Source: Parcubacteria group bacterium
GTDB taxonomy: Bacteria; Patescibacteriota; Minisyncoccia; Phycocordibacterales; DATDWN01
DNA length: 64,000 bases
Reading direction: 5' to 3'
Assembly (NCBI GenBank): GCA_038327915.1
Contig: JBBQLO010000001.1
Location: 20,407-84,406, forward strand
Shown: positions 29,382-56,202 of the stretch, one piece after another
How positions within the stretch are numbered: the first letter of the stretch is position 1
How the letters are laid out: the number at the start of each line of letters is the position of its first letter
Program-made: the position numbers and the translations under genes
Notes under the pieces: model-generated
What the model was told of the DNA's origin: nothing
What the model saw: the letters and a program-made list of their open reading frames with translations, nothing else
Database searches by the model: none

Positions 29382-29566
29382 TAACTTTAATTTTGAACCA
29401 CGAAACTCCTTTCGTCACATGCTTTTTGAAACCAGAATAATTTCTTGCTAGAAATTTTCTTCACGCTGGACAATCAAGAAAACAATGTCCTCCTCGTGTG
29501 CATGAGTGTTCCCTCACACTCGTCGTCCTTGTTTTCTAATCGTCTGCGCGATGTTTCAAAAAACAT

Positions 29567-31435
29567 ATGCCTTCAATGAAGTTTCTTGTTTCAAAAACAC
29601 TTACGCATATGTCAACCTCCGTCGAACAAATTAAATCCAAGCTCGACATTGTCACTCTCATTTCCTCGTACATACCGTTGGAACGGGCAGGAGTCAGTTT
29701 CAAAGGTAAATGCCCGTTCCATAATGAGAAGACACCTTCCTTTTTCGTCTCGCCTGAGCGAGGAAATTATTATTGTTTTGGTTGTCATGTGAAAGGAGAC
29801 ATCTTTACTTTTGTTCAGGAGTTTGAGGGTATAGATTTTCGCGGAGCTCTAAAAATGCTTGCCGACCGCACTGGCGTGGTTTTGTCACAGCATTCACCTG
29901 ATGAAATAAATGAGAAGGAGGTGGTGTATTCTCTTTTAGAACAGGCAGTTTTCTTCTACCAAAAAAAGTTATCCGAAAACGGACAAGCTCGAGAATATAT
30001 TGCAGGTCGAGGCGTGGGAGAAAAAAGTATTGCACAATTCCGAATCGGTTTTGCTCCCTTAGAATGGAGAGGTCTCTTCGAATTCCTCAAACTCAAAGGC
30101 GCCACAGAAAAAGATATGCTTCGGGCAGGACTTATTAAAAGAAAGGAAGTTGATCCTGTTGGAGACAGAGATGTGGTCGAAACGTACTATGACACCTTCC
30201 GCGGGAGAATTATGTTTCCTATCAACGACTCGTCTGGAAGGACAGTTGGATTTTCTGGACGTATTCTTGTGCCAGACCTAAGATCACCAAAATATCTCAA
30301 TAGTCCAGAGACAGAAGTATTTAAAAAATCAGAAGTACTTTTCGGACTTGATAAAGCTAAAACAGACATTCGATTAAAAGACTATTCTATTTTGGTAGAG
30401 GGCCAAATGGATCTTGTCATGATGCACCATGCGGGTATAACGAATACAGTGGCTTCTTCAGGAACTGCTTTGTCTCTCGAACATTTGACCAAACTTCGCC
30501 GTTTGTCGTCAAGAATCATTATGGCATTTGACGGTGATGGCGCAGGGTTTCGGGCCGCAGATCGGGGGGCCACCTTAGCATTGTCCCTTGGTATGGAACT
30601 CAAAATTGCCGAAATGCCAAAAGGTAAGGATCCGGCAGATCTGGCCAAAGATGATGTGGCTCTACTGACACTTTGTATTAAGTCAGCTAAGCACATTATT
30701 GACTTTTACACTGATTCACTTCTTAAGGAAGGCCTTCTTCCCCGTGAAGTAGGGCAAAAGATAAAAGAGCATGTGCTTCCATACGTTGCGATCCTGCCGA
30801 GTGCAATTGAACAAGCACATTTTGTACGTAGAATATCCCAAGTTGCTTTTATAAAAGAGGAAGCTCTGTGGGAGGATTTAAAAAAAGTGTCACGCCAAGG
30901 AGTTTCAAAAGAAGTGGTATTATCACAAATATTTCCTGTAGCTTCAGTGGGTAGGCTTGAAATAATTGAAAGAAGACTCATTGGCTTTGTGATGTGGCAA
31001 CGGGAGAGCAATAAGTTGGTGGAGTCAAAAACAGTTGCTTTAGTTGCACTACCAAATATTAATATACAAGAGATAGAGGAAAAAATACGTCAAATTTTGG
31101 GAGAGCGGCTCGATATGCTCATTGACCAATTGAATAATGAAAAAGAAGGAGAGAAGGAAATATTGTTGTTTGAAACTGAAAACTATTATACTATACGAGA
31201 TACGACAAAGGGCACCACTGGAGGTCCCGACAATAGCTATATTTTTAGAGAAGTGGTAGAACTACTTCAAGCACTAGAGGAGGGGTATCTCAAAAAAAGC
31301 GCTGAGCGCTTGCGGACAGAACTCCAAAGAGCCGAGCAACGTGGTGATCATGTTGAGAGAGATCGACTGACGGGAGAGTATCAAATTATTTCACAAAAAA
31401 TCAATCACATTAAAAATAAAAAGGATATAATATAA
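29567..31435 (+). CDS. dnaG: DNA primase
   Basis: Zn ribbon 'CPFHNEKTPSF...CFGCHVKGD' and TOPRIM 'EGQMDLVMMHHAGI...MAFDGDGAG'. The true start may be the internal Met at 29609. Confidence 0.9.
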   Translation: MPSMKFLVSKTLTHMSTSVEQIKSKLDIVTLISSYIPLERAGVSFKGKCPFHNEKTPSFFVSPERGNYYCFGCHVKGDIFTFVQEFEGIDFRGALKMLADRTGVVLSQHSPDEINEKEVVYSLLEQAVFFYQKKLSENGQAREYIAGRGVGEKSIAQFRIGFAPLEWRGLFEFLKLKGATEKDMLRAGLIKRKEVDPVGDRDVVETYYDTFRGRIMFPINDSSGRTVGFSGRILVPDLRSPKYLNSPETEVFKKSEVLFGLDKAKTDIRLKDYSILVEGQMDLVMMHHAGITNTVASSGTALSLEHLTKLRRLSSRIIMAFDGDGAGFRAADRGATLALSLGMELKIAEMPKGKDPADLAKDDVALLTLCIKSAKHIIDFYTDSLLKEGLLPREVGQKIKEHVLPYVAILPSAIEQAHFVRRISQVAFIKEEALWEDLKKVSRQGVSKEVVLSQIFPVASVGRLEIIERRLIGFVMWQRESNKLVESKTVALVALPNINIQEIEEKIRQILGERLDMLIDQLNNEKEGEKEILLFETENYYTIRDTTKGTTGGPDNSYIFREVVELLQALEEGYLKKSAERLRTELQRAEQRGDHVERDRLTGEYQIISQKINHIKNKKDII

Positions 31436-32717: not shown

Positions 32718-32816
32718 ATGCAGCGTTTGAAGTTTACTGTTCAAGTAGAAAACTTCACCTTATGTAGGTGAAGTTTTTGATATTTTACTCTGTATAATTT
32801 GTGGTAGTATTGTCGT

Positions 32817-36223: not shown

Positions 36224-36952
36224 TTATTTCGAGAGTAATGTGTCGATTGTTGACTTGAGAGCCTCATACGACTCTGCACCGACAACTGGTATTTGTGAAC
36301 CGTCTTTTGTGATAAGAACTGAGTATGGTGTTCCTTGGGCGCCCGCTTTCACCGCTTCGTCATAGCTCGCTTGAATTTTAGCTGAATATTTTCCTGAATT
36401 GAGACAGGTTGTGAAATTTTTAGTGTTGATTCCTATTGTTGAAGCAAAGGTTGTGAGTTGCGCGGGGTCGAGACCATTGTTACCCGGAGTCTGGTCGTAA
36501 ATCATGTTGAGATATTGCCAAAATTTAGCCGGACCACCTATTTCATTGACACATTCAGTTGCCTCTGCTTCTTTTGGTGCTTTGGAATGAAGTTGAGCGA
36601 TAGGAAAGTGGCGATATACCCACGCAACTTTACCATCTTTGCCATATTCGGTCATAAGCCGATTGAGCGTTGGGTTAAAAAGTTTGCAGTACGGACATTC
36701 AGTATCAGAATATTCAACAATTACAATATCTGCGTTCGGATTCCCGAGAATATGGTCGCTTGCGGATATAGAAGGAATCTGGTGAGGTGCTGTTGGTGTT
36801 GTTGTAGTTGTGACTGCTTGATTTTTGATTGTTTCTTTTTTTGCATTGAGGTTGGAAAAATATAGTGCACCAGCAATGATACCTCCGGCAACGATGATAG
36901 CAATAGGAATGGCGATTTTGTTTGTGTCCATGGTGTGTATTATACCTTTCAA
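36224..36952 (-). CDS. DsbA-like thiol:disulfide oxidoreductase (thioredoxin fold), membrane anchored
   Basis: N-terminal TM helix and a CxxC active site 'TECPYCKLF'. Confidence 0.7.
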   Translation of the reverse strand: MKGIIHTMDTNKIAIPIAIIVAGGIIAGALYFSNLNAKKETIKNQAVTTTTTPTAPHQIPSISASDHILGNPNADIVIVEYSDTECPYCKLFNPTLNRLMTEYGKDGKVAWVYRHFPIAQLHSKAPKEAEATECVNEIGGPAKFWQYLNMIYDQTPGNNGLDPAQLTTFASTIGINTKNFTTCLNSGKYSAKIQASYDEAVKAGAQGTPYSVLITKDGSQIPVVGAESYEALKSTIDTLLSK

Positions 36953-36986
36953 ATTTTCAAAAGCAAATTATTATTGCAACAGAAAC

Positions 36987-37161
36987 CAGTCACTCTCGCA
37001 TGCTTGCTTTTTTAGAACATCGCGCAGGAGCTTAGAAAACAACAGCGATCGAGTGCGCGGCATACGAGGAGCTGATTGTTTTCTTGAGCGACGAGCGCTG
37101 AAGAAATTTTTCAGCAGAAAAATATTCTGGTTCTAAAAAAGCAAGCATGCGAGAGTGACTG
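36987..37161. repeat. 32-bp perfect inverted repeats (36987-37018 and 37130-37161) flanking a 111-bp GC-richer core: MITE-like element or invertible segment
   Basis: The left arm cagtcactctcgcatgcttgcttttttagaac is the exact reverse complement of the right arm. It lies 35 bp upstream of the dsbA-like start and directly after the exonuclease stop. Confidence 0.7.
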
Positions 37162-37167
37162 AAATCA

Positions 37168-37749
37168 CTAAAACAAACTTTGAGTTTTCATCTCCTCGAC
37201 GGGTTCCCAATGTTTGGTATCAAGCTTAATTTCTTTAACGTTTGGCCCTTCTTTAAACATCAACTTTTTATTTTTTAGTGCGTACTCATAGACATCTTTT
37301 GTGATGCGTACGTCGTCTGTACAGTACTTTCTAATTTTTTCGATTTCCCCCTGCTTCCACCATACGATAGCATCAAGGCCGTTACCGCTTTTTTTTATTC
37401 CAAGCGTCCCTTCAGCCACTTGGTCGAGTTTCATTCTCCTGCCGTAGGCGTTTCTGATTTCCTTCAATATGTCGAGTGAGCGAATGTGAGAGAGGTCATG
37501 TCCTCGGGATTTTATATAGTATTTATTAAGTATTGGAATATCAAAATGGTCTCCGTTGTACGTGATGAGCATGTCGGCGGTATCGAGTAAATCCCACAGG
37601 CGTGGAAAATCCTCTTCGAGAAAACTGTCGTACGTGCGTGTCTCGCAATCATATGTACATACCATCGACACATCGAGGGCAACTGGGTCCGTCGATCCCA
37701 CATCCTGAAAGATATTTTTTGTTTCAATATCGAAGACAATTTTTTTCAT
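37168..37749 (-). CDS. DEDDy-type 3'-5' exonuclease, RNase H-like fold (YprB/PolB-exo-like)
   Basis: Exo I 'IVFDIETKN', Exo II 'YNGDHFDIPIL' and Exo III 'YCTDDVRITKDVYEY'. Confidence 0.65.
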   Translation of the reverse strand: MKKIVFDIETKNIFQDVGSTDPVALDVSMVCTYDCETRTYDSFLEEDFPRLWDLLDTADMLITYNGDHFDIPILNKYYIKSRGHDLSHIRSLDILKEIRNAYGRRMKLDQVAEGTLGIKKSGNGLDAIVWWKQGEIEKIRKYCTDDVRITKDVYEYALKNKKLMFKEGPNVKEIKLDTKHWEPVEEMKTQSLF

Positions 37750-37878
37750 ACAAAGAGTATAGCAAAGTAGAGAATTTTGACTAATATTGATACAATATAT
37801 TTGAAATTAGTCTACTTGACAAAGAAATATAATCGTATATTGTTATTTTTAGATTTTGTAATTTGAAAGGAGGTTTAA

Positions 37879-38631
37879 ATGGATAATGAAAGAATTGAAA
37901 TATTTCGAGAGCACTTCGAGGAATGTCTCAGACATTTCGGAAAGACTTTCAGTGCTAACTATCCTCCTGGAAGCAGGAATCGATGCAAGCTACTCAAGCC
38001 TTTAATTGATTTTTGTGGAGTTGGCAGACAAACCGCTCAGAAATGGATAGACGACATGGGTATTCCAAGAGGGGAACTCATGATGAAACTTAGTTGTTAC
38101 CTTGACTTGAATGGATATAGAATCATTGAGCTCGAAAGAATGCCGAGAGTAATTCGAGGTGTTCTGGAGCTTATTGGTTTTAGTATACTCAGTGCCAACG
38201 ATATGGCAGTCGCTCTGGGTTATGAAGTCCAGAGTCTGTATGACATTTTTCTCAGGGAAGCAGGGACAAGTCAAGAAAAAGAAGCGATGATGTTTGAACT
38301 CTGGAAGGGTAAGAAGACGGAACTTGAAACAAAGAATCATGAGGCTTTTGAATCAATCCATCTAGCAAGAGTTTCTAGAGCAACTTCAGAGTCAGAAGTA
38401 ATCGGACAGCAAGTTTTGTCCCTTATGAAATCTGGTGAAGACATTTCTGCTCGGCGAAACGCTACACTGGCAATCATACGAGGTTTGCGGCTTCTTTTGG
38501 ATGAGGGTTTGTTTTCAAATCTTACCTCAAAGGAAATTTCAGGCATAAGCAATGATGAGCGTCTTGATGTTCTTCAGCTTTTGAATCATTTTACCGCTCT
38601 GAGCTCAAAACTCATACAAGTAAGGGACTAG
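37879..38631 (+). CDS. hypothetical protein, first gene of higher-GC strong-SD island
   Basis: Perfect SD AAAGGAGGT sits 5 nt before the ATG. 250 aa, no recognisable catalytic motif, possible HTH near 'GRQTAQKWIDDMGIPRGE'. Confidence 0.45.
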   Translation: MDNERIEIFREHFEECLRHFGKTFSANYPPGSRNRCKLLKPLIDFCGVGRQTAQKWIDDMGIPRGELMMKLSCYLDLNGYRIIELERMPRVIRGVLELIGFSILSANDMAVALGYEVQSLYDIFLREAGTSQEKEAMMFELWKGKKTELETKNHEAFESIHLARVSRATSESEVIGQQVLSLMKSGEDISARRNATLAIIRGLRLLLDEGLFSNLTSKEISGISNDERLDVLQLLNHFTALSSKLIQVRD

Positions 38632-38633
38632 TC

Positions 38634-38897
38634 ATGGAAGATCATAGCTTTATCTGTATTGTTGAGAAAGTAGTTACTGAGGGTAAACATGGACCCTACG
38701 CGGCGGTCAGCTCAAACGATTTAGGACCAATTACTTTTGCCCTCACCTTACAGGTGTGGAAAGAAGAAATATGGCCCGAACCTGGAACGTATGTTGTACT
38801 GTCTCAGGTAATCAAAAAGCGTGCCGGATGGCGTGCAAAACTGGGTCGGTTTTTACAACCGTCCGACGAGAAAAAAGGAGAAACGAATGAGAGTTAA
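38634..38897 (+). CDS. small hypothetical protein (87 aa)
   Basis: Tightly packed between the flanking genes and on the same strand. No known motif. Confidence 0.35.
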   Translation: MEDHSFICIVEKVVTEGKHGPYAAVSSNDLGPITFALTLQVWKEEIWPEPGTYVVLSQVIKKRAGWRAKLGRFLQPSDEKKGETNES

Positions 38898-39711
38898 GAG
38901 AACGCAGACTGTAATGTTGAGCGGACTGAAAGCCAACTTGTTTGTCAGGAAAGAATTGGATCCGGATCATGTATTCGTGCTTGCTGAGCTCATGGAGGCT
39001 GGCGTTCCGATGAATGATCGGATGAAAGTCACTGAGACGGATCATATCATCGTTGATGGACGTCACCGTAAAGAAGCATATGAGCTCGCTAAGTATAGAG
39101 AGGTTGAAGTCGATATTGTTGCAGACATGAGTGAGATCGAGATGATATCGGAGGCATATCGGTCAAACACAGGTGGTTCTAAACCACCAACAACAGACGA
39201 CACCGAACACACCATCATGCTTCTTTGGCAACGGAATGAAAACATGAGGCGGATTGGGGAGTGTCTCGGAATTCCGAGTGGTCTTGCTCGAAAATACGTG
39301 ATGGCGATCAAATCGCGTATGGCTAGGGTTGCACTCCAACAAGCTATTGCTGCGGTTACCAACAACAATGTGAAGATTCAGGATGCTGCAGAACTTCATG
39401 GAGTAGATATCGAAATGTTGAGGACGGTGATGTCCGGTAAACGTAAAAAGCATAAGAACGGTGTGGGCGATGTTCAGCGAACGTTAACCAATACCCACAG
39501 AACTCTTGGGTTGAAAAATGCGGCAACAATCCGTGCATTGTTTATGCAGTTCGCAGATGGTGATATTACGGAAATGCAAATGAAAGAGATTCTTGATCAA
39601 CTCGAATCACTTCAAAAGCGTCATACTCGGTCAATCGTTGATTGGAGGGCGCGTTTTGAAGGGATTGTTAAGGGGAACAAGAATTCTCAAGAATGTGCAA
39701 AATCCGCTTAA
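38887..39711 (+). CDS. ParB/Srx-like nuclease-domain protein with HTH
   Basis: Start chosen at ATG 38887, preceded by AAAAAGGAGAAACGA. The ParB N-terminal domain pattern is 'LFVRKELDPDHVFVLAELMEAGVPMNDRMKVTETDHIIVDGRHRKEAYELAKYREVEVDIV', followed by an HTH-like 'RRIGECLGIPSGLARKYV'. Confidence 0.6.
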   Translation: MRVKRTQTVMLSGLKANLFVRKELDPDHVFVLAELMEAGVPMNDRMKVTETDHIIVDGRHRKEAYELAKYREVEVDIVADMSEIEMISEAYRSNTGGSKPPTTDDTEHTIMLLWQRNENMRRIGECLGIPSGLARKYVMAIKSRMARVALQQAIAAVTNNNVKIQDAAELHGVDIEMLRTVMSGKRKKHKNGVGDVQRTLTNTHRTLGLKNAATIRALFMQFADGDITEMQMKEILDQLESLQKRHTRSIVDWRARFEGIVKGNKNSQECAKSA

Positions 39712-39724
39712 TTGTTTTTTACCG

Positions 39725-39753
39725 CCAGGGTGCATATGCACCCTGGTTTTTTT
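39725..39753 (+). terminator. rho-independent terminator
   Basis: Perfect 22-nt palindrome ccagggtgcatatgcaccctgg followed by T7. A T-run also sits upstream. Confidence 0.75.
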
Positions 39754-52593: not shown

Positions 52594-52821
52594 ATGATTA
52601 AATTTGTACACAAAAAACATTTTACCAAAGTAAAAGGTACTGCCAAAATAATTATCACATACAGTGCTTTTGATATTATTCTCGGTATATTTCTTTTGGT
52701 AACCAATATTATTGTCATAATGACACTCTACCACTATCAGAATCCTTCATATAAAAATGGGATGATGAATTCGCAAGTTCCATATCCGTTACGTTTGCAG
52801 ACCTCTCACTCACGTCTATAA
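52594..52821 (+). CDS. small single-TM protein (MIKFVHKKH...), paralog of 54597..54779, pilin-cassette associated
   Basis: 75 aa with one hydrophobic helix. About 60% identical over the first 50 aa to ORF 54597. Confidence 0.45.
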   Translation: MIKFVHKKHFTKVKGTAKIIITYSAFDIILGIFLLVTNIIVIMTLYHYQNPSYKNGMMNSQVPYPLRLQTSHSRL

Positions 52822-52850
52822 TGCATGGTTTTGTCTTTCATAATAAAATA

Positions 52851-53342
52851 ATGCCTCATTATAAAGACAAAGGATTCACCCTTATCGAACTTCTTGTTGT
52901 TATTTCTATTATTGGCTTACTCTCGAGTGTTGTGTTGGCTAGTCTCAATACTGCTCGTGGGAAGGCTCGAGATGCGTCGATTAAGGAAGAAGTACAACAA
53001 GTTACTCGACTTATGGCACTTAATTATAGTGAGACGGGAACATACGTCCAACTCCAAGATTGGACGTGGAAATATACTGTGGCAGATTGCGCAGCGTCCA
53101 CAGTGTCTGGTAATTATGCCAGTCAGTTTATAAATATATGTAAAAGTGTTGTTTTATTGAATGGAGGAGTAGGTGGTTTTTTCAGTGGCAACTCGGTCGA
53201 TGGTAACAATCTTTTTTCTGTTTTTGCGTATTTACCATCCGTAGGTCAGTTCTTTTGTGCTGGTAGTAGTGGTGCAAACTCTGCTGGAACACCGGGAACG
53301 TATTCGTATTGGTCTGGTCCCGGGTGTTATGGTAACCCTTAA
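52851..53342 (+). CDS. type IV pilin-like protein (prepilin)
   Basis: Class III signal 'MPHYKDKG|FTLIELLVVISIIGLLSSVVLASL', with Cys pairs near the C-terminus. Confidence 0.75.
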   Translation: MPHYKDKGFTLIELLVVISIIGLLSSVVLASLNTARGKARDASIKEEVQQVTRLMALNYSETGTYVQLQDWTWKYTVADCAASTVSGNYASQFINICKSVVLLNGGVGGFFSGNSVDGNNLFSVFAYLPSVGQFFCAGSSGANSAGTPGTYSYWSGPGCYGNP

Positions 53343-53422
53343 ACTGGGTGGTGTAAATGAAGTAGCTACTGAGCATCTTACAAAATTGAATGTGATACAA
53401 TGAAGTAAATAAAATTAACACT

Positions 53423-53713
53423 ATGTCCGACGTTCAATTTGATGAAGAAAATGCTCTAGCAAGCTATTCAAACTCTTTTCGTAGAACACAAGAGGAAACA
53501 TTGAGTACACTTCAAAACCTAGTTATTAAGACCGGATTAATTTCAAGCAAAGTTCAAGCCGATTATGTACTCGGTGCCATAGCCCTTATTTGTTTTTTAG
53601 CTACGTGTTTCGTATTTTTTTCCTCTAGTGGTATTTTATCGTCTGGTTCAGTTCCAGTTTCGAAAGAAAAGATGATAGAGGCTTTACATCAATTACCACA
53701 GGGACGCCCATAA
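53423..53713 (+). CDS. small single-TM protein, MSDVQFDE family (copy 1)
   Basis: Conserved N-terminus 'MSDVQFDEEN', one TM helix. Own TTGAAT-18-TAAAAT promoter-like sequence at 53376-53405. Confidence 0.5.
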   Translation: MSDVQFDEENALASYSNSFRRTQEETLSTLQNLVIKTGLISSKVQADYVLGAIALICFLATCFVFFSSSGILSSGSVPVSKEKMIEALHQLPQGRP

Positions 53714-53725
53714 TTTGTCCTTTAT

Positions 53726-54283
53726 ATGTTCAATATACTTAAAAATAAAATAAAGGTTACAAACAAAGGCTTCACACTTATCGAACTTTTAGTCGTCATT
53801 GCCATTATTGGTTTACTGTCGAGTGTTGTTCTTGCAAGTCTCAATACTGCTCGAGGGAAGGCTCGAGATGCCAAAAGGGTTGCCGAGTTATCTTCATTAT
53901 AGAGTGCAATTGAGTTGTACCATGACAGCACTGGTCATTATCCGAATGATGGTGGGGGTGGAACATATGCTGATTGTTGGAAGGTAGGAAGTAATTGGAT
54001 TCCTGATAGCGGTAACTATAACTGGTCGAGTACATATATTCCTAAACAACCACGCGATCCGATCGATACGTGTTGTTGGCCATGGGGTAACTGTGGAAAC
54101 CCCGGAGATGCAGGAACGTACGAATATTGGAGTGATGGCAACAAATATCTCCTTGTCGCCCGCTTGGAAAATACTTCTAGCCCGCTTCGGGCAGAAATAA
54201 CACGGATTATTGACCCAAGGAGTGGTCAACCATACGCTAACAATAATCCACTTGGAAAATATTGTTTTGTTATTAGTAATTAG
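53726..54283 (+). pseudogene. type IV pilin-like gene interrupted by in-frame TAG (53900-53902)
   Basis: 'MFNILKNKIKVTNKG|FTLIELLVVIAIIGLLSSVVLASLNTARGKARDAKRVAELSSL*SAIELYHDSTGHYP...'. The frame stays open and conserved, with 4 Cys, through to 54283. Confidence 0.55.
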
Positions 54284-54314
54284 ATATAATTGTAGTTCAT
54301 TTAAATCAACTTAT

Positions 54315-54500
54315 ATGTCCGACGTTCAATTTGATGAGCAAGATCTCGCTTCATATACTCAACCGAGGAAAATAGGAGAGAAATCTACCTTGGTGAAGTT
54401 TGTGGAGAAAATGGGTGTGCCAGAGGAGTATGTAAATTACGTATTTATTGGAGTAGTATCTGTGTGTATTTTTTTTGCGGTACTCATTGTTATTCGTTAA
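54315..54500 (+). CDS. small single-TM protein, MSDVQFDE family (copy 2, short)
   Basis: 'MSDVQFDEQDLASY...' with a C-terminal TM helix. The 5' nucleotide block is near-identical to copies 1 and 3. Confidence 0.45.
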   Translation: MSDVQFDEQDLASYTQPRKIGEKSTLVKFVEKMGVPEEYVNYVFIGVVSVCIFFAVLIVIR

Positions 54501-54596
54501 TCTAGTCACTCCTCTCCCCAAATTCCCCAATCCATTATGGATGCTATGAAGTCGGGAGGACCTGCACGTTTGAAATAATTTAAAATTTAAAATATT

Positions 54597-54779
54597 ATGA
54601 TAAAATTTATTCACAAAAAGCATCATGACGAGCTAAAAGGAACAGCGAGGATAATTATTACCTATACTCTCACTGACATTATACTGGGATTTTTTCTTTT
54701 ATTTGCCAGTTTTCTTGTTATTGTGACTTTGTATCAGTATCAATCAACCATGTATTCCTCAGGTGTCAAGGGTTCGTAA
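54597..54779 (+). CDS. small single-TM protein (MIKFIHKKH...), paralog of 52594..52821
   Basis: 60 aa, same architecture, located upstream of a pilin gene. Confidence 0.45.
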   Translation: MIKFIHKKHHDELKGTARIIITYTLTDIILGFFLLFASFLVIVTLYQYQSTMYSSGVKGS

Positions 54780-54833
54780 GAACATTTGATGAAAATGAAC
54801 GCACCTCATATGCCCACTTTTTACTAACAGACT

Positions 54834-55355
54834 ATGAATAAAAAAAATTTACATTTACGCAAAGGCTTCACCCTGATCGAACTCCTCGTGGTCATTGCTA
54901 TTATTGGTCTTTTATCGAGCGTTGTATTAGCAAGTTTGAATACTGCTCGGGGGAAGGCGAGGGATGCAATAAGAAAACAAGAAATGCGAGAAATACAAAG
55001 TGCACTCAACCTCTATTATTCTGATTTTGGTTCCTACCCACTTCCAAATCCTGGTTCGTGGGGTGGAATTAGTACAGTACCATGCGGACCAGGAAATGGA
55101 CAAACAGGCGGCGCGAATGCATATATTTTAGGGTTAACTCCAAAATACATGGGCACTCTCCCTGTTGATCCTGGTCCTGCTGGTTCTTGCAATGGTATTA
55201 TGTATGCTTCTGATGGCATAAATTATAAATTATTAGATCATCAGTCGTATGAGGGAACATATCCCACTGCTGGGCAGGAATTTTATGATCCACTTCGAAA
55301 AACATGGTCGATCATGCTTTGTAGTGGAGATTTGACAACGTGTAATACATGGTAA
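54834..55355 (+). CDS. type IV pilin-like protein (prepilin)
   Basis: 'MNKKNLHLRKG|FTLIELLVVIAIIGLLSSVVLASLNTARGKARDA' with Cys pairs in the C-terminal half. Confidence 0.75.
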   Translation: MNKKNLHLRKGFTLIELLVVIAIIGLLSSVVLASLNTARGKARDAIRKQEMREIQSALNLYYSDFGSYPLPNPGSWGGISTVPCGPGNGQTGGANAYILGLTPKYMGTLPVDPGPAGSCNGIMYASDGINYKLLDHQSYEGTYPTAGQEFYDPLRKTWSIMLCSGDLTTCNTW

Positions 55356-55379
55356 TATAATAAATGTAGTTATTTTTAT

Positions 55380-55670
55380 ATGTCCGACGTCCAATTTGAT
55401 GAAGAAAATAGTCTCGCGAGTTATACACGTTCTGCTGTGCGTAAACCTGACGAAGTAGCGGGTGGTTTTGTTATGAAAACTGTGATGAAAACAGGGTTTG
55501 TCAAGACTTCAGCACAAGCGCAATACGTACTTATGGCACTCGCAACGTTATTTTTTCTTACAGCGACGTTTATTATTTTTCACGATTCAGGAGGTAGATT
55601 TTCTTCGAAAGTTGTTCCAAGGGAGACCGTTGATGAAATGATGAAAAAAATTTCTAATCATGGCCAATAA
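55380..55670 (+). CDS. small single-TM protein, MSDVQFDE family (copy 3)
   Basis: 'MSDVQFDEENSLASY...' with a TM helix 'YVLMALATLFFLTATFIIF'. Confidence 0.5.
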   Translation: MSDVQFDEENSLASYTRSAVRKPDEVAGGFVMKTVMKTGFVKTSAQAQYVLMALATLFFLTATFIIFHDSGGRFSSKVVPRETVDEMMKKISNHGQ

Positions 55671-55683
55671 TTCGATATACTTT

Positions 55684-56202
55684 ATGAAAAAATATAATCG
55701 AGGTTTTACTCTTATCGAGCTCTTGGTCGTTATTTCAATTATTGGTTTGTTGTCGAGTGTTGTTCTCGCAAGCTTAAATACTGCGCGATCTAAAGCCCGT
55801 GATGCAAAGACTTTGGAAGATATACACCAGATTACACTTGCACTCCAGTTGGTGCGTTCAAATGATCCAAATTTTCTTTTTCCTGGAAATTCAGGGAGTT
55901 GGCAATGTCTCAAGTCAAGTGGCACATGTTGGGGTGGAGGTTATTCAGCGAACGCGGGAGTTATTACAGCGCTAGCCCCATATATGTCCAATGTTCCGAG
56001 ACCATCACCCCCATCAGGTACAGAAATGTACGATGCATATTTATATTTACCAAATTACACCGCTTATATTGGATCTTCTCCTCCCGGCACATATATTATA
56101 TATGCTCTAGAACGTCCTTTTCCAGGATCATGTAATGGATACTACGCTGGTGCATACGATGTTGGCTATTACTATTGTTACTCTTTTATTGATGGATTGT
56201 AG
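55684..56202 (+). CDS. type IV pilin-like protein (prepilin)
   Basis: 'MKKYNRG|FTLIELLVVISIIGLLSSVVLASLNTARSKARDA' and a Cys-rich C-terminus. The ORF-track start at 55660 overlaps the upstream gene. Confidence 0.7.
   Translation: MKKYNRGFTLIELLVVISIIGLLSSVVLASLNTARSKARDAKTLEDIHQITLALQLVRSNDPNFLFPGNSGSWQCLKSSGTCWGGGYSANAGVITALAPYMSNVPRPSPPSGTEMYDAYLYLPNYTAYIGSSPPGTYIIYALERPFPGSCNGYYAGAYDVGYYYCYSFIDGL

Follow-up and report, generated by a model that had tools for sequence, protein, structure and literature searches.

The perfect 32-bp inverted repeat that lies between an exonuclease gene (exo) and a dsbA-like gene in a Parcubacteria group genome is the stem that closes one copy within a dispersed family of branched hairpins, about 115–185 nt in length, that occurs in Patescibacteria of the Paceibacteria type and apparently has not been described so far. 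The repeat is located in a stretch of 64,000 nt (contig JBBQLO010000001.1, positions 20,407 to 84,406), which is called here the window and whose own numbering is used throughout. Two copies of the family were recognized in the window: copy 1, at positions 36987–37161, which is closed by the perfect repeat, and copy 2, at positions 29402–29584. The explanation that we consider probable on the whole, for the family and also for the context of copy 1, is that of a structure-dependent, non-autonomous, dispersed intergenic element, of the kind of the miniature inverted-repeat transposable elements (MITEs), REPINs, ERIC or Correia elements.

The arms of the repeat, at 36987–37018 (CAGTCACTCTCGCATGCTTGCTTTTTTAGAAC) and 37130–37161, were complementary at 32 of 32 positions (100%) and enclosed a spacer of 111 nt, for a total element length of 175 nt. 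This was in agreement with the preliminary description of this DNA, which had reported a perfect repeat around a 111-bp core at the same coordinates and had considered it beyond chance. The arms formed the longest inverted repeat of the window, the next perfect ones being only 16 nt long, and the arm 32-mer occurred at just two sites of the window, even with three mismatches allowed, while none of 100 shuffles gave a match. Two smaller claims of the same description were also confirmed: the core is richer in GC than its surroundings (46.8%, versus 40.5% in the flanks and 40.0% in the window), and it contains a short palindrome, GCTGAA-GAAATTT-TTCAGC, located at 37097–37115. The fold of copy 1 gave z-scores of −11 to −12 with either strand.

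Perfect long inverted repeats can be produced by chimeric reads, but it is hardly conceivable that the repeat of copy 1 is an assembly or amplification artefact of that kind, i.e., a fold-back chimera. Homologues of the same architecture were found in dozens of independent contigs from metagenomes and metagenome-assembled genomes (MAGs), and the contigs of a second assembler broke at the very place where a genuine inverted repeat of 31 nt or more forces a break. Among the Logan contigs of SRR19962015, the one on the exonuclease side (L001) and the one on the dsbA side (L111), which carry exonuclease and DsbA genes identical to those of the window, each stopped exactly 30 nt into the arm. Since a perfect inverted repeat of 31 nt or more necessarily breaks a graph with k = 31, as was seen, the repeat is not the artefact of one assembler. 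Labels such as L001 or L033 denote the related loci that were fetched, and the suffixes a and b denote copies within one locus.

Recovery of the Family and a Second Copy in the Window

The related sequences comprised 80 metagenomic loci fetched through the exonuclease and 29 genome loci fetched through the helicase, about 800 kb altogether, and the closest genomes were Patescibacteria/Paceibacteria MAGs. In blastn comparisons with these loci, a part of the core of copy 1 (CAGAATATTTTTCTGCTGAAAAATTTC, on the gene strand) recurred beside the orthologous exonuclease gene, and each recurring core was enclosed by its own, different long inverted repeat. Two covariance models were constructed with the window sequences excluded: R1, from 12 relatives, and R2, which covers the full structure, from 21 relatives. 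With R1, copy 1 was matched at 37005–37146 of the minus strand with 56.6 bits, and copy 2 at 29416–29566 with 59.7 bits, both matches being unchanged with the filters off. With R2, copy 1 was matched at 36988–37161 of the plus strand with 58 bits (E about 1e-9), and copy 2 with 71.2 bits (E about 6e-13), while 42 matches were obtained across the about 800 kb of related Patescibacteria loci.

Copy 2 is located in the rpoC/dnaG spacer, on the minus strand, and has an imperfect stem (arms 29416–29432 and 29553–29569) that keeps the internal loop described below. Over about 150 nt, copies 1 and 2 have 78% identity, and both contain an expanded form of one of the family helices (P3), which was also present in copies of L055, L033, L046 and L051. 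The arm of copy 2 contains the first ATG of the mechanically called dnaG open reading frame (29567); dnaG itself probably starts at the ATG near 29609 (MSTSVEQIK...). Concerning copy number, there were two copies in the 64 kb of the window and 2–4 copies in each of the loci L033, L046, L050, L051, L053 and L061, none of them longer than 10.5 kb; the density among relatives thus reached 3–4 copies per 10 kb.

A BLASTN search for further copies of the repeat had been recommended in the preliminary description. Its outcome was divided: the exact 22-mer from the arm had no match in the genome and metagenome contig collections, so that identical copies are absent from them, while related copies were recovered by the covariance models. 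No match was obtained with a degenerate pattern for the conserved hairpin P2 in viral contigs, nor with blastn in its distant mode in plasmids. Rfam 15 at the gathering level returned only a tRNA-Thr from the window, and at permissive E-values, with copy 1 and three relatives of short P3 as queries, it returned only spurious matches to plant miRNA precursors, far below the threshold. In the literature on Patescibacteria or Parcubacteria in connection with MITEs, REP sequences, and structured or noncoding RNA, no such element was found described. The TIGR-Tas arrays met in that literature are tandem guide arrays and bear no relation to the family.

Architecture of the Hairpin and Compensatory Changes

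The consensus is described here for the CAGCAG strand, which is the plus strand of the window for copy 1 and the minus strand for copy 2. It consists, in this order, of an outer stem (P0), an internal loop, a second stem (P1), a three-way junction, the helices P3 and P2, and the 3′ strands of P1 and P0. P0 is AAAUCUC/GAGAUUU and is often longer; the internal loop has GUUGAG on its 5′ side and GAGAAA on its 3′ side; and P1 measures 8–20 bp. P3 varies in length between about 25 nt and over 100 nt and contains a conserved GAGC/GAGA bulge. P2 has about 10 bp, one bulged A, and a tetraloop AGCA or ACCA closed by a C-G or U-A pair, the loop AGCA of one strand being UGCU on the other. In copy 1, the left arm (36987–37018) corresponds to P0 plus P1 with the internal loop closed, and the right arm (37130–37161) keeps the family motif GAGAG...; P3 occupies 37021–37098 of the plus strand as an expanded variable hairpin with the helix UUAGAAAACAA ... 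UUGUUUUCUUGA, and P2 occupies 37101–37128 of the same strand (loop at 37113–37116), with the sequence AGAAAUUUUUC-AGCA-GAAAAAU(A)UUCU, including the one bulged base.

The stems of the family are maintained by compensatory changes. P1 and P2 were already supported by RNAalifold applied to plain MAFFT alignments, with double changes in 23 of 26 and in 8 of 10 pairs. In the alignment derived from the model, with 37 distinct sequences, 83.7% of the cells were standard pairs, compared to 61.3% in column shuffles and to no more than 56% when the partners were slid, and compensatory changes occurred in 32 of 33 pairs; the model-fitted alignment inflates pairing somewhat, and the slid controls use that same alignment. 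The covariation score was 0.508 versus 0.177 for the shuffles, none of 500 reaching the observed value. Considering P2 separately, its sequence was conserved among relatives, 10 of its 11 pairs covaried across the family and 93% of the cells were paired. The long arms, which also covary, were the least conserved part of the element, and the branched core was the best conserved one.

Copy 1 departs from this consensus in one respect. The internal loop, present in copy 2 and in most relatives, is absent from copy 1 and from L033a. In copy 1, the 5′ strand ...CACUCUC/GCAUGC... pairs directly with ...GCAUGC/GAGAGUG...; its left arm is the exact complement of the GAGAG motif of the right arm at the place where the family carries GUUGAG. 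The closing of the loop lets P0 and P1 stack into the perfect 32-bp duplex. The fact that all 32 pairs are Watson–Crick points to a recent homogenization at the DNA level or to a young copy, because selection on RNA only would be expected to leave some G-U pairs. Quasi-palindrome correction is a known process that makes one arm match the other at the DNA level, and it seems most likely that the loop of copy 1 was lost either by a templated arm-to-arm correction of this sort or through a recent origin of the copy.

Other observations concern P3 and the motifs of the unpaired regions. The copies located upstream of typA in two loci (L033:111-249 and L035:6-204) contain an additional conserved insertion of about 80 nt in P3 (...TACAGGA.C.GTACACCTTTCACAT...AAGGTCTTGCGAAA...), which makes P3 a hotspot for large, partly conserved expansions. 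A weak P2-like match at L060:9480-9620 lies inside an apparent tRNA gene broken by an insertion, and it is probably unrelated to the family; the insertion is possibly a group I intron. Group I introns have been reported in the tRNAs of Patescibacteria. Several known structures were compared with the consensus and rejected. Ribosomal, tRNA-like, signal recognition particle, 6S, Y and retron RNAs were discarded for their wrong architecture, for the multi-copy character of the family or for the absence of an associated gene, and the hammerhead, twister and twister-sister ribozymes for the absence of their core motifs and of Rfam matches. A K-turn in the internal loop is incompatible with the length of the 3′ strand, which is too long. 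A pseudoknot between the P2 loop and the internal loop (CAGC with GUUG) was rejected as the loop variants CAGCAG, CACCAG and UAGCAA do not covary with the internal loop, and an EcoP15I-type CAGCAG site was rejected as the loop is not invariant.

Dispersal, Turnover and Inversion

The family is multi-copy, occupies different spacers in spite of a common gene order, leaves remnants, is replaced at its sites, and inverts as a whole. The gene order typA-truB-hisS-exo-dsbA-helicase is conserved in the host clade, but the element was found, depending on the genome, in the hisS/exo, rpoC/dnaG or truB/hisS spacers, at the 3′ side of exo, dsbA or rpoD, or upstream of typA. Filled and empty sites were seen even between close relatives: although the exonucleases of L078 and L104 are 91% identical, the hisS/exo junction holds a 119-nt element in L078 and is empty in L104. 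In the empty junctions (L104, L073, L080, L085, L095 and L107), the stop codon of hisS overlaps the start codon of exo. A solo-arm remnant (AAAATTTCTTTCTCG) follows exo in L031 (1755–1780), and another remnant arm was located directly upstream of a complete copy in L033 (5585–5615), an arrangement suggestive of insertions or replacements repeated at the same site. The close relatives L033 and L046 carry different subfamilies at the same site (L033a versus L046b), while L033a and L033b, at different sites of one genome, have an identical P2-junction sequence.

The copies of clade B showed a peculiar relationship to the neighbouring gene. Their hisS-proximal arm consists of the last 7–9 codons of hisS (...NF(L/I)KN(V/I)*), which are conserved in element-less relatives, and their distal arm is an imperfect inverted complement of these terminal codons. 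In L078 and L094, on the one hand, and in L079 and L075, on the other, the same element (about 85% identical, arms and internal loop included) lies between hisS and exo in opposite orientations, and the tail of HisRS shifts with the orientation of the element, from KNV* to KNIR* or ENIH*. The simplest reading of these sequences would be an evolutionary inversion through the inverted repeat. The palindromic stretch at the clade B junction encodes F(F/L)KN in either orientation (L078:1440-1610, L079:4850-5005). A different case was seen in L045:1-300, where the hisS reading frame ends early (...DFLETHNLLTQ*), exactly at the element, and the C-terminal anticodon-binding domain is apparently absent; this may reflect a truncation or rearrangement connected with the element, unless it is an artefact of the contig.

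Strand Preference of the Fold

The two strands of a hairpin are equivalent with regard to Watson–Crick stems, so any difference between them must come from transitions, which give G-U pairs on one strand and A-C mismatches on the other. In unbiased local alignments of arm versus arm, where all mismatches are scored alike, the transition mismatches read on the CAGCAG strand were 41 G-U versus 8 A-C. This asymmetry held both for copies that were sense and for copies that were antisense to their neighbours. The folding energy, too, was lower for the CAGCAG strand in 24 of the 27 copies. For copy 2, the minus strand gave −73.6 kcal/mol (z −8.1) and the plus strand −45.2 kcal/mol (z −3.6), and for copy 1 the best fold was that of the plus strand, which is the antisense strand of exo and dsbA. 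The unpaired motifs that are conserved are rich in purines when read on the CAGCAG strand. A signal specific to single-stranded DNA of one replication strand was rejected, as the two window copies are oppositely oriented while the GC skew is monotonic.

Gene Context, Promoters and Terminators

Copy 1 lies between two genes of the minus strand. The upstream one (37168–37749) encodes a 193-aa RNase_H_2/PolB-exo-like 3′-5′ exonuclease, and the downstream one (36224–36931) encodes a DsbA/Thioredoxin_4 protein of 235 aa counted from the ATG at 36931, the start also used by the gene caller. The preliminary description had correctly placed the element between the exonuclease stop and the DsbA start, and to this must be added that both genes run on the minus strand and that the element ends 6 nt from the stop codon (37168–37170). 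The distance of 35 bp that it had given to the dsbA ATG needs correction, the actual distance being 55 nt; 35 nt is the distance to an in-frame upstream TTG at 36952.

As read from the sequence, the −10 box of dsbA (TATAAT, 36939–36944, minus strand) precedes the ATG by 7 nt and is not part of the element. A conserved TGnTAYAAT is present in the short exo/dsbA spacer of element-less relatives. A promoter scan of 36600–37600 gave no promoter-like site within 36987–37161 on either strand. With the −10 box of dsbA outside and no promoter in the core, the element neither supplies nor flips the dsbA promoter. The dsbA gene of the window appears near-leaderless (36932–36986, minus strand), and in relatives an extended −10 is found about 25–30 nt before the ATG.

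With few exceptions, the element begins at a stop codon or shortly behind it: about 20 copies begin 0–31 nt after the stop codon of exo, rpoD, rpoC, dsbA or hisS, or overlap it slightly. In spacers between co-directional genes, the CAGCAG strand was the antisense strand of the genes in 12 cases and the sense strand in 3, these counts not being independent events. In convergent spacers, the canonical terminator of the other gene sits between that gene and the element. Considered together, the location after stop codons, the 12:3 bias and the placement of terminators imply that the RNA ordinarily produced across the element should be that of the CTGCTG strand, in the form of a 3′ untranslated region. 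The search for a promoter of the CAGCAG strand, internal or at a fixed distance, gave none that is conserved, and a terminator directly adjoins some of the copies.

Within the window, canonical terminators follow rpoD and hisS, and there are none after rpoC and exo, each of which precedes a copy of the element. The two GC-hairpin/T-run terminators, at 32748–32778 (after rpoD) and at 39724–39747 (after hisS; bidirectional, and shared with an inserted segment), indicate that ordinary intrinsic terminators are used in the genome of the window. The terminator scan found none at copy 1 or copy 2, with the limitation that it does not model branched hairpins. On the gene strand, the stem of copy 1 is followed by GUUUCUGUU. 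In the family, a mild T-richness of the tails is seen on either strand (7.5 and 6.8 T of 16), without a strand difference.

Concerning the remaining surroundings, the wider window contains rpoC, dnaG, rpoD, hisS, truB, typA and a gene for a UvrD-like helicase. The neighbours of copy 1 are the exonuclease, DsbA, the UvrD-like helicase and three reading frames without Pfam or PHROG matches. The latter (250, 87 and 296 aa, plus strand) fill a segment of about 2 kb between exo and hisS (37750–39751). As exo and hisS are adjacent or overlapping in all the relatives examined, this segment may be an integrated foreign one. Farther away, at 52594–56202, there is a tandemly duplicated module of three genes, whose products are a small membrane protein, a type IV pilin-like protein of 173 aa (with FTLIELLVV at its N-terminus) and a protein of 96 aa; it is followed by a further pilin-like gene.

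Interpretation and Alternative Explanations

According to the explanation that we favour, the family would have spread as a non-autonomous, structure-dependent mobile element, and the feature recognized and selected would be the fold of a single strand (CAGCAG, as DNA or RNA) and not a terminal sequence. At the level of the host, the exonuclease transcript would include copy 1 in its 3′ untranslated region, ahead of the promoter that dsbA has of its own, and the long hairpin of copy 1 probably ends, processes or insulates that transcript, with no on/off switching of dsbA. The long RNA stem that the preliminary description had offered as one candidate is plausible, and is upheld insofar as the fold is conserved by covariation; either strand may be the active one, as RNA or as single-stranded DNA.

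Several points weigh against this explanation. Neither a mobilizing enzyme, nor a direct target-site duplication, nor an autonomous partner with the same ends was found in the window and the about 800 kb of related loci, and the copy number per genome is an extrapolation from these two sources. The copy at the 3′ side of exo persists across hosts whose exonucleases are only 65–80% identical, which could mean long-term selection in situ for a host function and not turnover. The use of hisS coding sequence as an arm in clade B fits poorly with a cut-and-paste element of fixed ends. The probable role in termination or processing was deduced from position only: the terminator scan detected none at the element, and the T-richness behind the stem is similar on the two strands. 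Regarding the strand, the G-U asymmetry was weak in the model-fitted alignment (69 versus 48, p = 0.06), the counts are not phylogenetically independent, and the expected transcript is the CTGCTG strand, not the one favoured by the wobble asymmetry. It could be interpreted that the CAGCAG fold was selected at the level of the element, as single-stranded DNA or as an RNA intermediate of its spread, and was inherited by all the copies, while the host would tolerate mainly those insertions in which the transcript corresponds to the other, less stable strand.

The alternative of most weight, which we regard as quite possible though not probable, is that of a host-functional structured RNA kept at each site by selection, without selfish spread. 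It could act in cis, as a 3′-untranslated or intercistronic structure (a complex, possibly bidirectional terminator, an RNase III site or an mRNA stabilizer), or else as a small RNA that acts in trans or binds a protein. The strong covariation of all the helices is what would be expected from it, together with the conservation of unpaired elements (the AGCA loop, the GUUGAG/GAGAAA internal loop and GAGC), the mentioned persistence at the 3′ side of exo, the start of copies within 0–31 nt of the stop codons of five different genes, and the occupation by the window copies of places after rpoC and exo that lack a canonical terminator. Also, P0 reads 5′-AAAAUCUC...GAGAUUUU-3′ on both strands, resembling the A-tract and U-tract of a bidirectional terminator, but no short GC-rich stem directly adjoins the U-tract. 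A function fixed at each site is difficult to reconcile with the shift of sites between close relatives, the occurrence of both orientations at one site, and the remnants and replacements. Moreover, there is no conserved promoter at a fixed distance, and some loci, with only about 17 nt to a convergent terminator, leave no room for one; the strand favoured by the G-U asymmetry is mostly antisense to the neighbouring genes; and copy 1 lacks the conserved internal loop. A classical MITE, i.e., a deletion derivative of a DNA transposon with terminal repeats recognized in trans by a transposase and with a target-site duplication, seems unlikely. The multi-copy, intergenic character of the family, its presence/absence variation and the short termini AAATCTC...GAGATTT (about 7 bp) common to the clade A copies agree with it, but the check for target-site duplications contemplated in the preliminary description was negative: the flanks of 35 copies had no consistent direct repeat, and several had instead reverse-complementary stretches of 4–7 bp immediately beyond the conserved termini. 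Conservation is lowest in the long arms, which covary, and highest in the core, and copy 1 lacks even the 7-bp termini; besides, coding sequence of the host can serve as one of the arms. In the about 800 kb, the search for larger elements bounded by the family termini gave no pair of termini around a reading frame, but only noise, two extra small copies and remnants, and no transposase or recombinase was found among the window reading frames tested (the neighbours of copy 1 plus ten more). Even so, among the candidates of the preliminary description, the MITE-like element came closest, with its dispersed and multi-copy nature, filled and empty spacers and remnants; it departs from a classical MITE in the lack of a direct target-site duplication, in long arms that differ between copies, and in that no transposase was found among the reading frames tested.

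The remaining candidate of that description, an invertible promoter switch (inverton) in which a recombinase flips the segment at the 32-bp repeats and so switches the DsbA-like gene, can be considered very improbable. Perfect inverted repeats around a short core upstream of a gene are what such a switch requires, and a homologous element occurs in both orientations between hisS and exo across genomes. However, the suggested promoter prediction on both orientations of the core gave no promoter-like site, the −10 box of dsbA sits between the element and the ATG and is conserved in the absence of the element, and neither an invertase nor a recombinase was detected in the neighbouring reading frames or in the others that were sampled. 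The inversion seen in relatives includes the arms and is not the flipping of a core between fixed arms, and elements of the same type are found after rpoC, rpoD, hisS and dsbA, where a switch makes no sense. So, the idea of a phase-variable switch of DsbA and the pilins is removed for copy 1.

Beyond these alternatives, it may be put forward, as a tentative and rather doubtful proposal, that the family is a new functional single-strand structure specific to Patescibacteria, be it a structured RNA or a structure-guided mobile element. In the former version, it might bind a protein or cleave itself, with the purine-rich internal loop, the AGCA tetraloop and the GAGC junction as the active core. 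In the latter, propagation by way of a folded strand might be combined with extension of the stem by inverted copying of flanking host sequence, as suggested by the arm that is the 3′ end of hisS, and with inversion in place. In any case, a usable covariance model is now available for scanning closed genomes and metatranscriptomes for a partner protein and for the active strand.

Comparison with Known Systems

REPINs are extragenic palindromes mobilized by RAYT transposases, in which the hairpin, and not the exact sequence, is maintained. The present family resembles REP sequences and REPINs in being short, non-coding, extragenic and multi-copy, in the preservation of a single-strand imperfect hairpin over sequence, and in its occurrence in either orientation. 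The differences are that REPINs are doublets of a short REP palindrome accompanied by a single-copy RAYT gene in Proteobacteria, while the hosts of the family are Patescibacteria, its arms are not self-palindromic, and its core is a three-way junction, asymmetric and with conserved loops. The window reading frames that were sampled included no RAYT/Y1 transposase. The ends of IS200/IS605 elements were ruled out because that family has no long terminal repeats.

ERIC (IRU) elements of enterobacteria and Correia (NEMIS) elements of Neisseria are imperfect palindromes of 100–160 bp in transcribed intergenic regions, frequently right behind genes, whose long hairpin transcripts affect the processing, stability or termination of mRNA. 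The likeness to them lies in size, in the position after stop codons and in presence/absence between relatives, but there is no sequence similarity, and the ends of the family vary without duplication, in contrast to the 26-bp terminal repeats and TA duplication of Correia elements. To our knowledge, neither ERIC nor Correia elements have a conserved branched core whose stems covary. With MITEs, the family shares its small size, its non-autonomous and multi-copy nature, and its inverted-repeat ends, but no target-site duplication or autonomous partner was found, and the conservation of the terminal repeats is only partial.

The attC sites of integrons are another case in which structure is conserved while sequence varies. 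Like them, the family has a succession of stem, unpaired central spacer, stem and variable terminal structure, and one strand folds. Unlike them, its outer stem is AAATCTC/GAGATTT, without R′/R″ boxes (RYYYAAC/GTTRRRY), GTTGAG occurring only in the unpaired internal loop; its terminal structure is conserved; and its copies lie between housekeeping genes (rpoC/dnaG, hisS/exo), with no cassette array or integrase. Invertons are similar in the inverted repeats around a short segment upstream of a gene and in the inversion seen in relatives, and differ in that the family has no promoter in the core and no recombinase, leaves dsbA with its own promoter and is not tied to a class of genes.

Patescibacteria (candidate phyla radiation) have very small, gene-dense genomes, thought to be poor in repetitive and regulatory non-coding DNA. 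The family fills many of the few spacers, sits after the stop codons of rpoC, rpoD and hisS and overlaps the end of an essential gene, and branched hairpins backed by covariation would be a notable addition to the known non-coding content of these bacteria. Compared to all the systems mentioned, the family is distinctive in the combination of an asymmetric three-way-junction core with covarying stems, arms that include host coding sequence, inversion in place, and residence in a phylum of minimal genomes.

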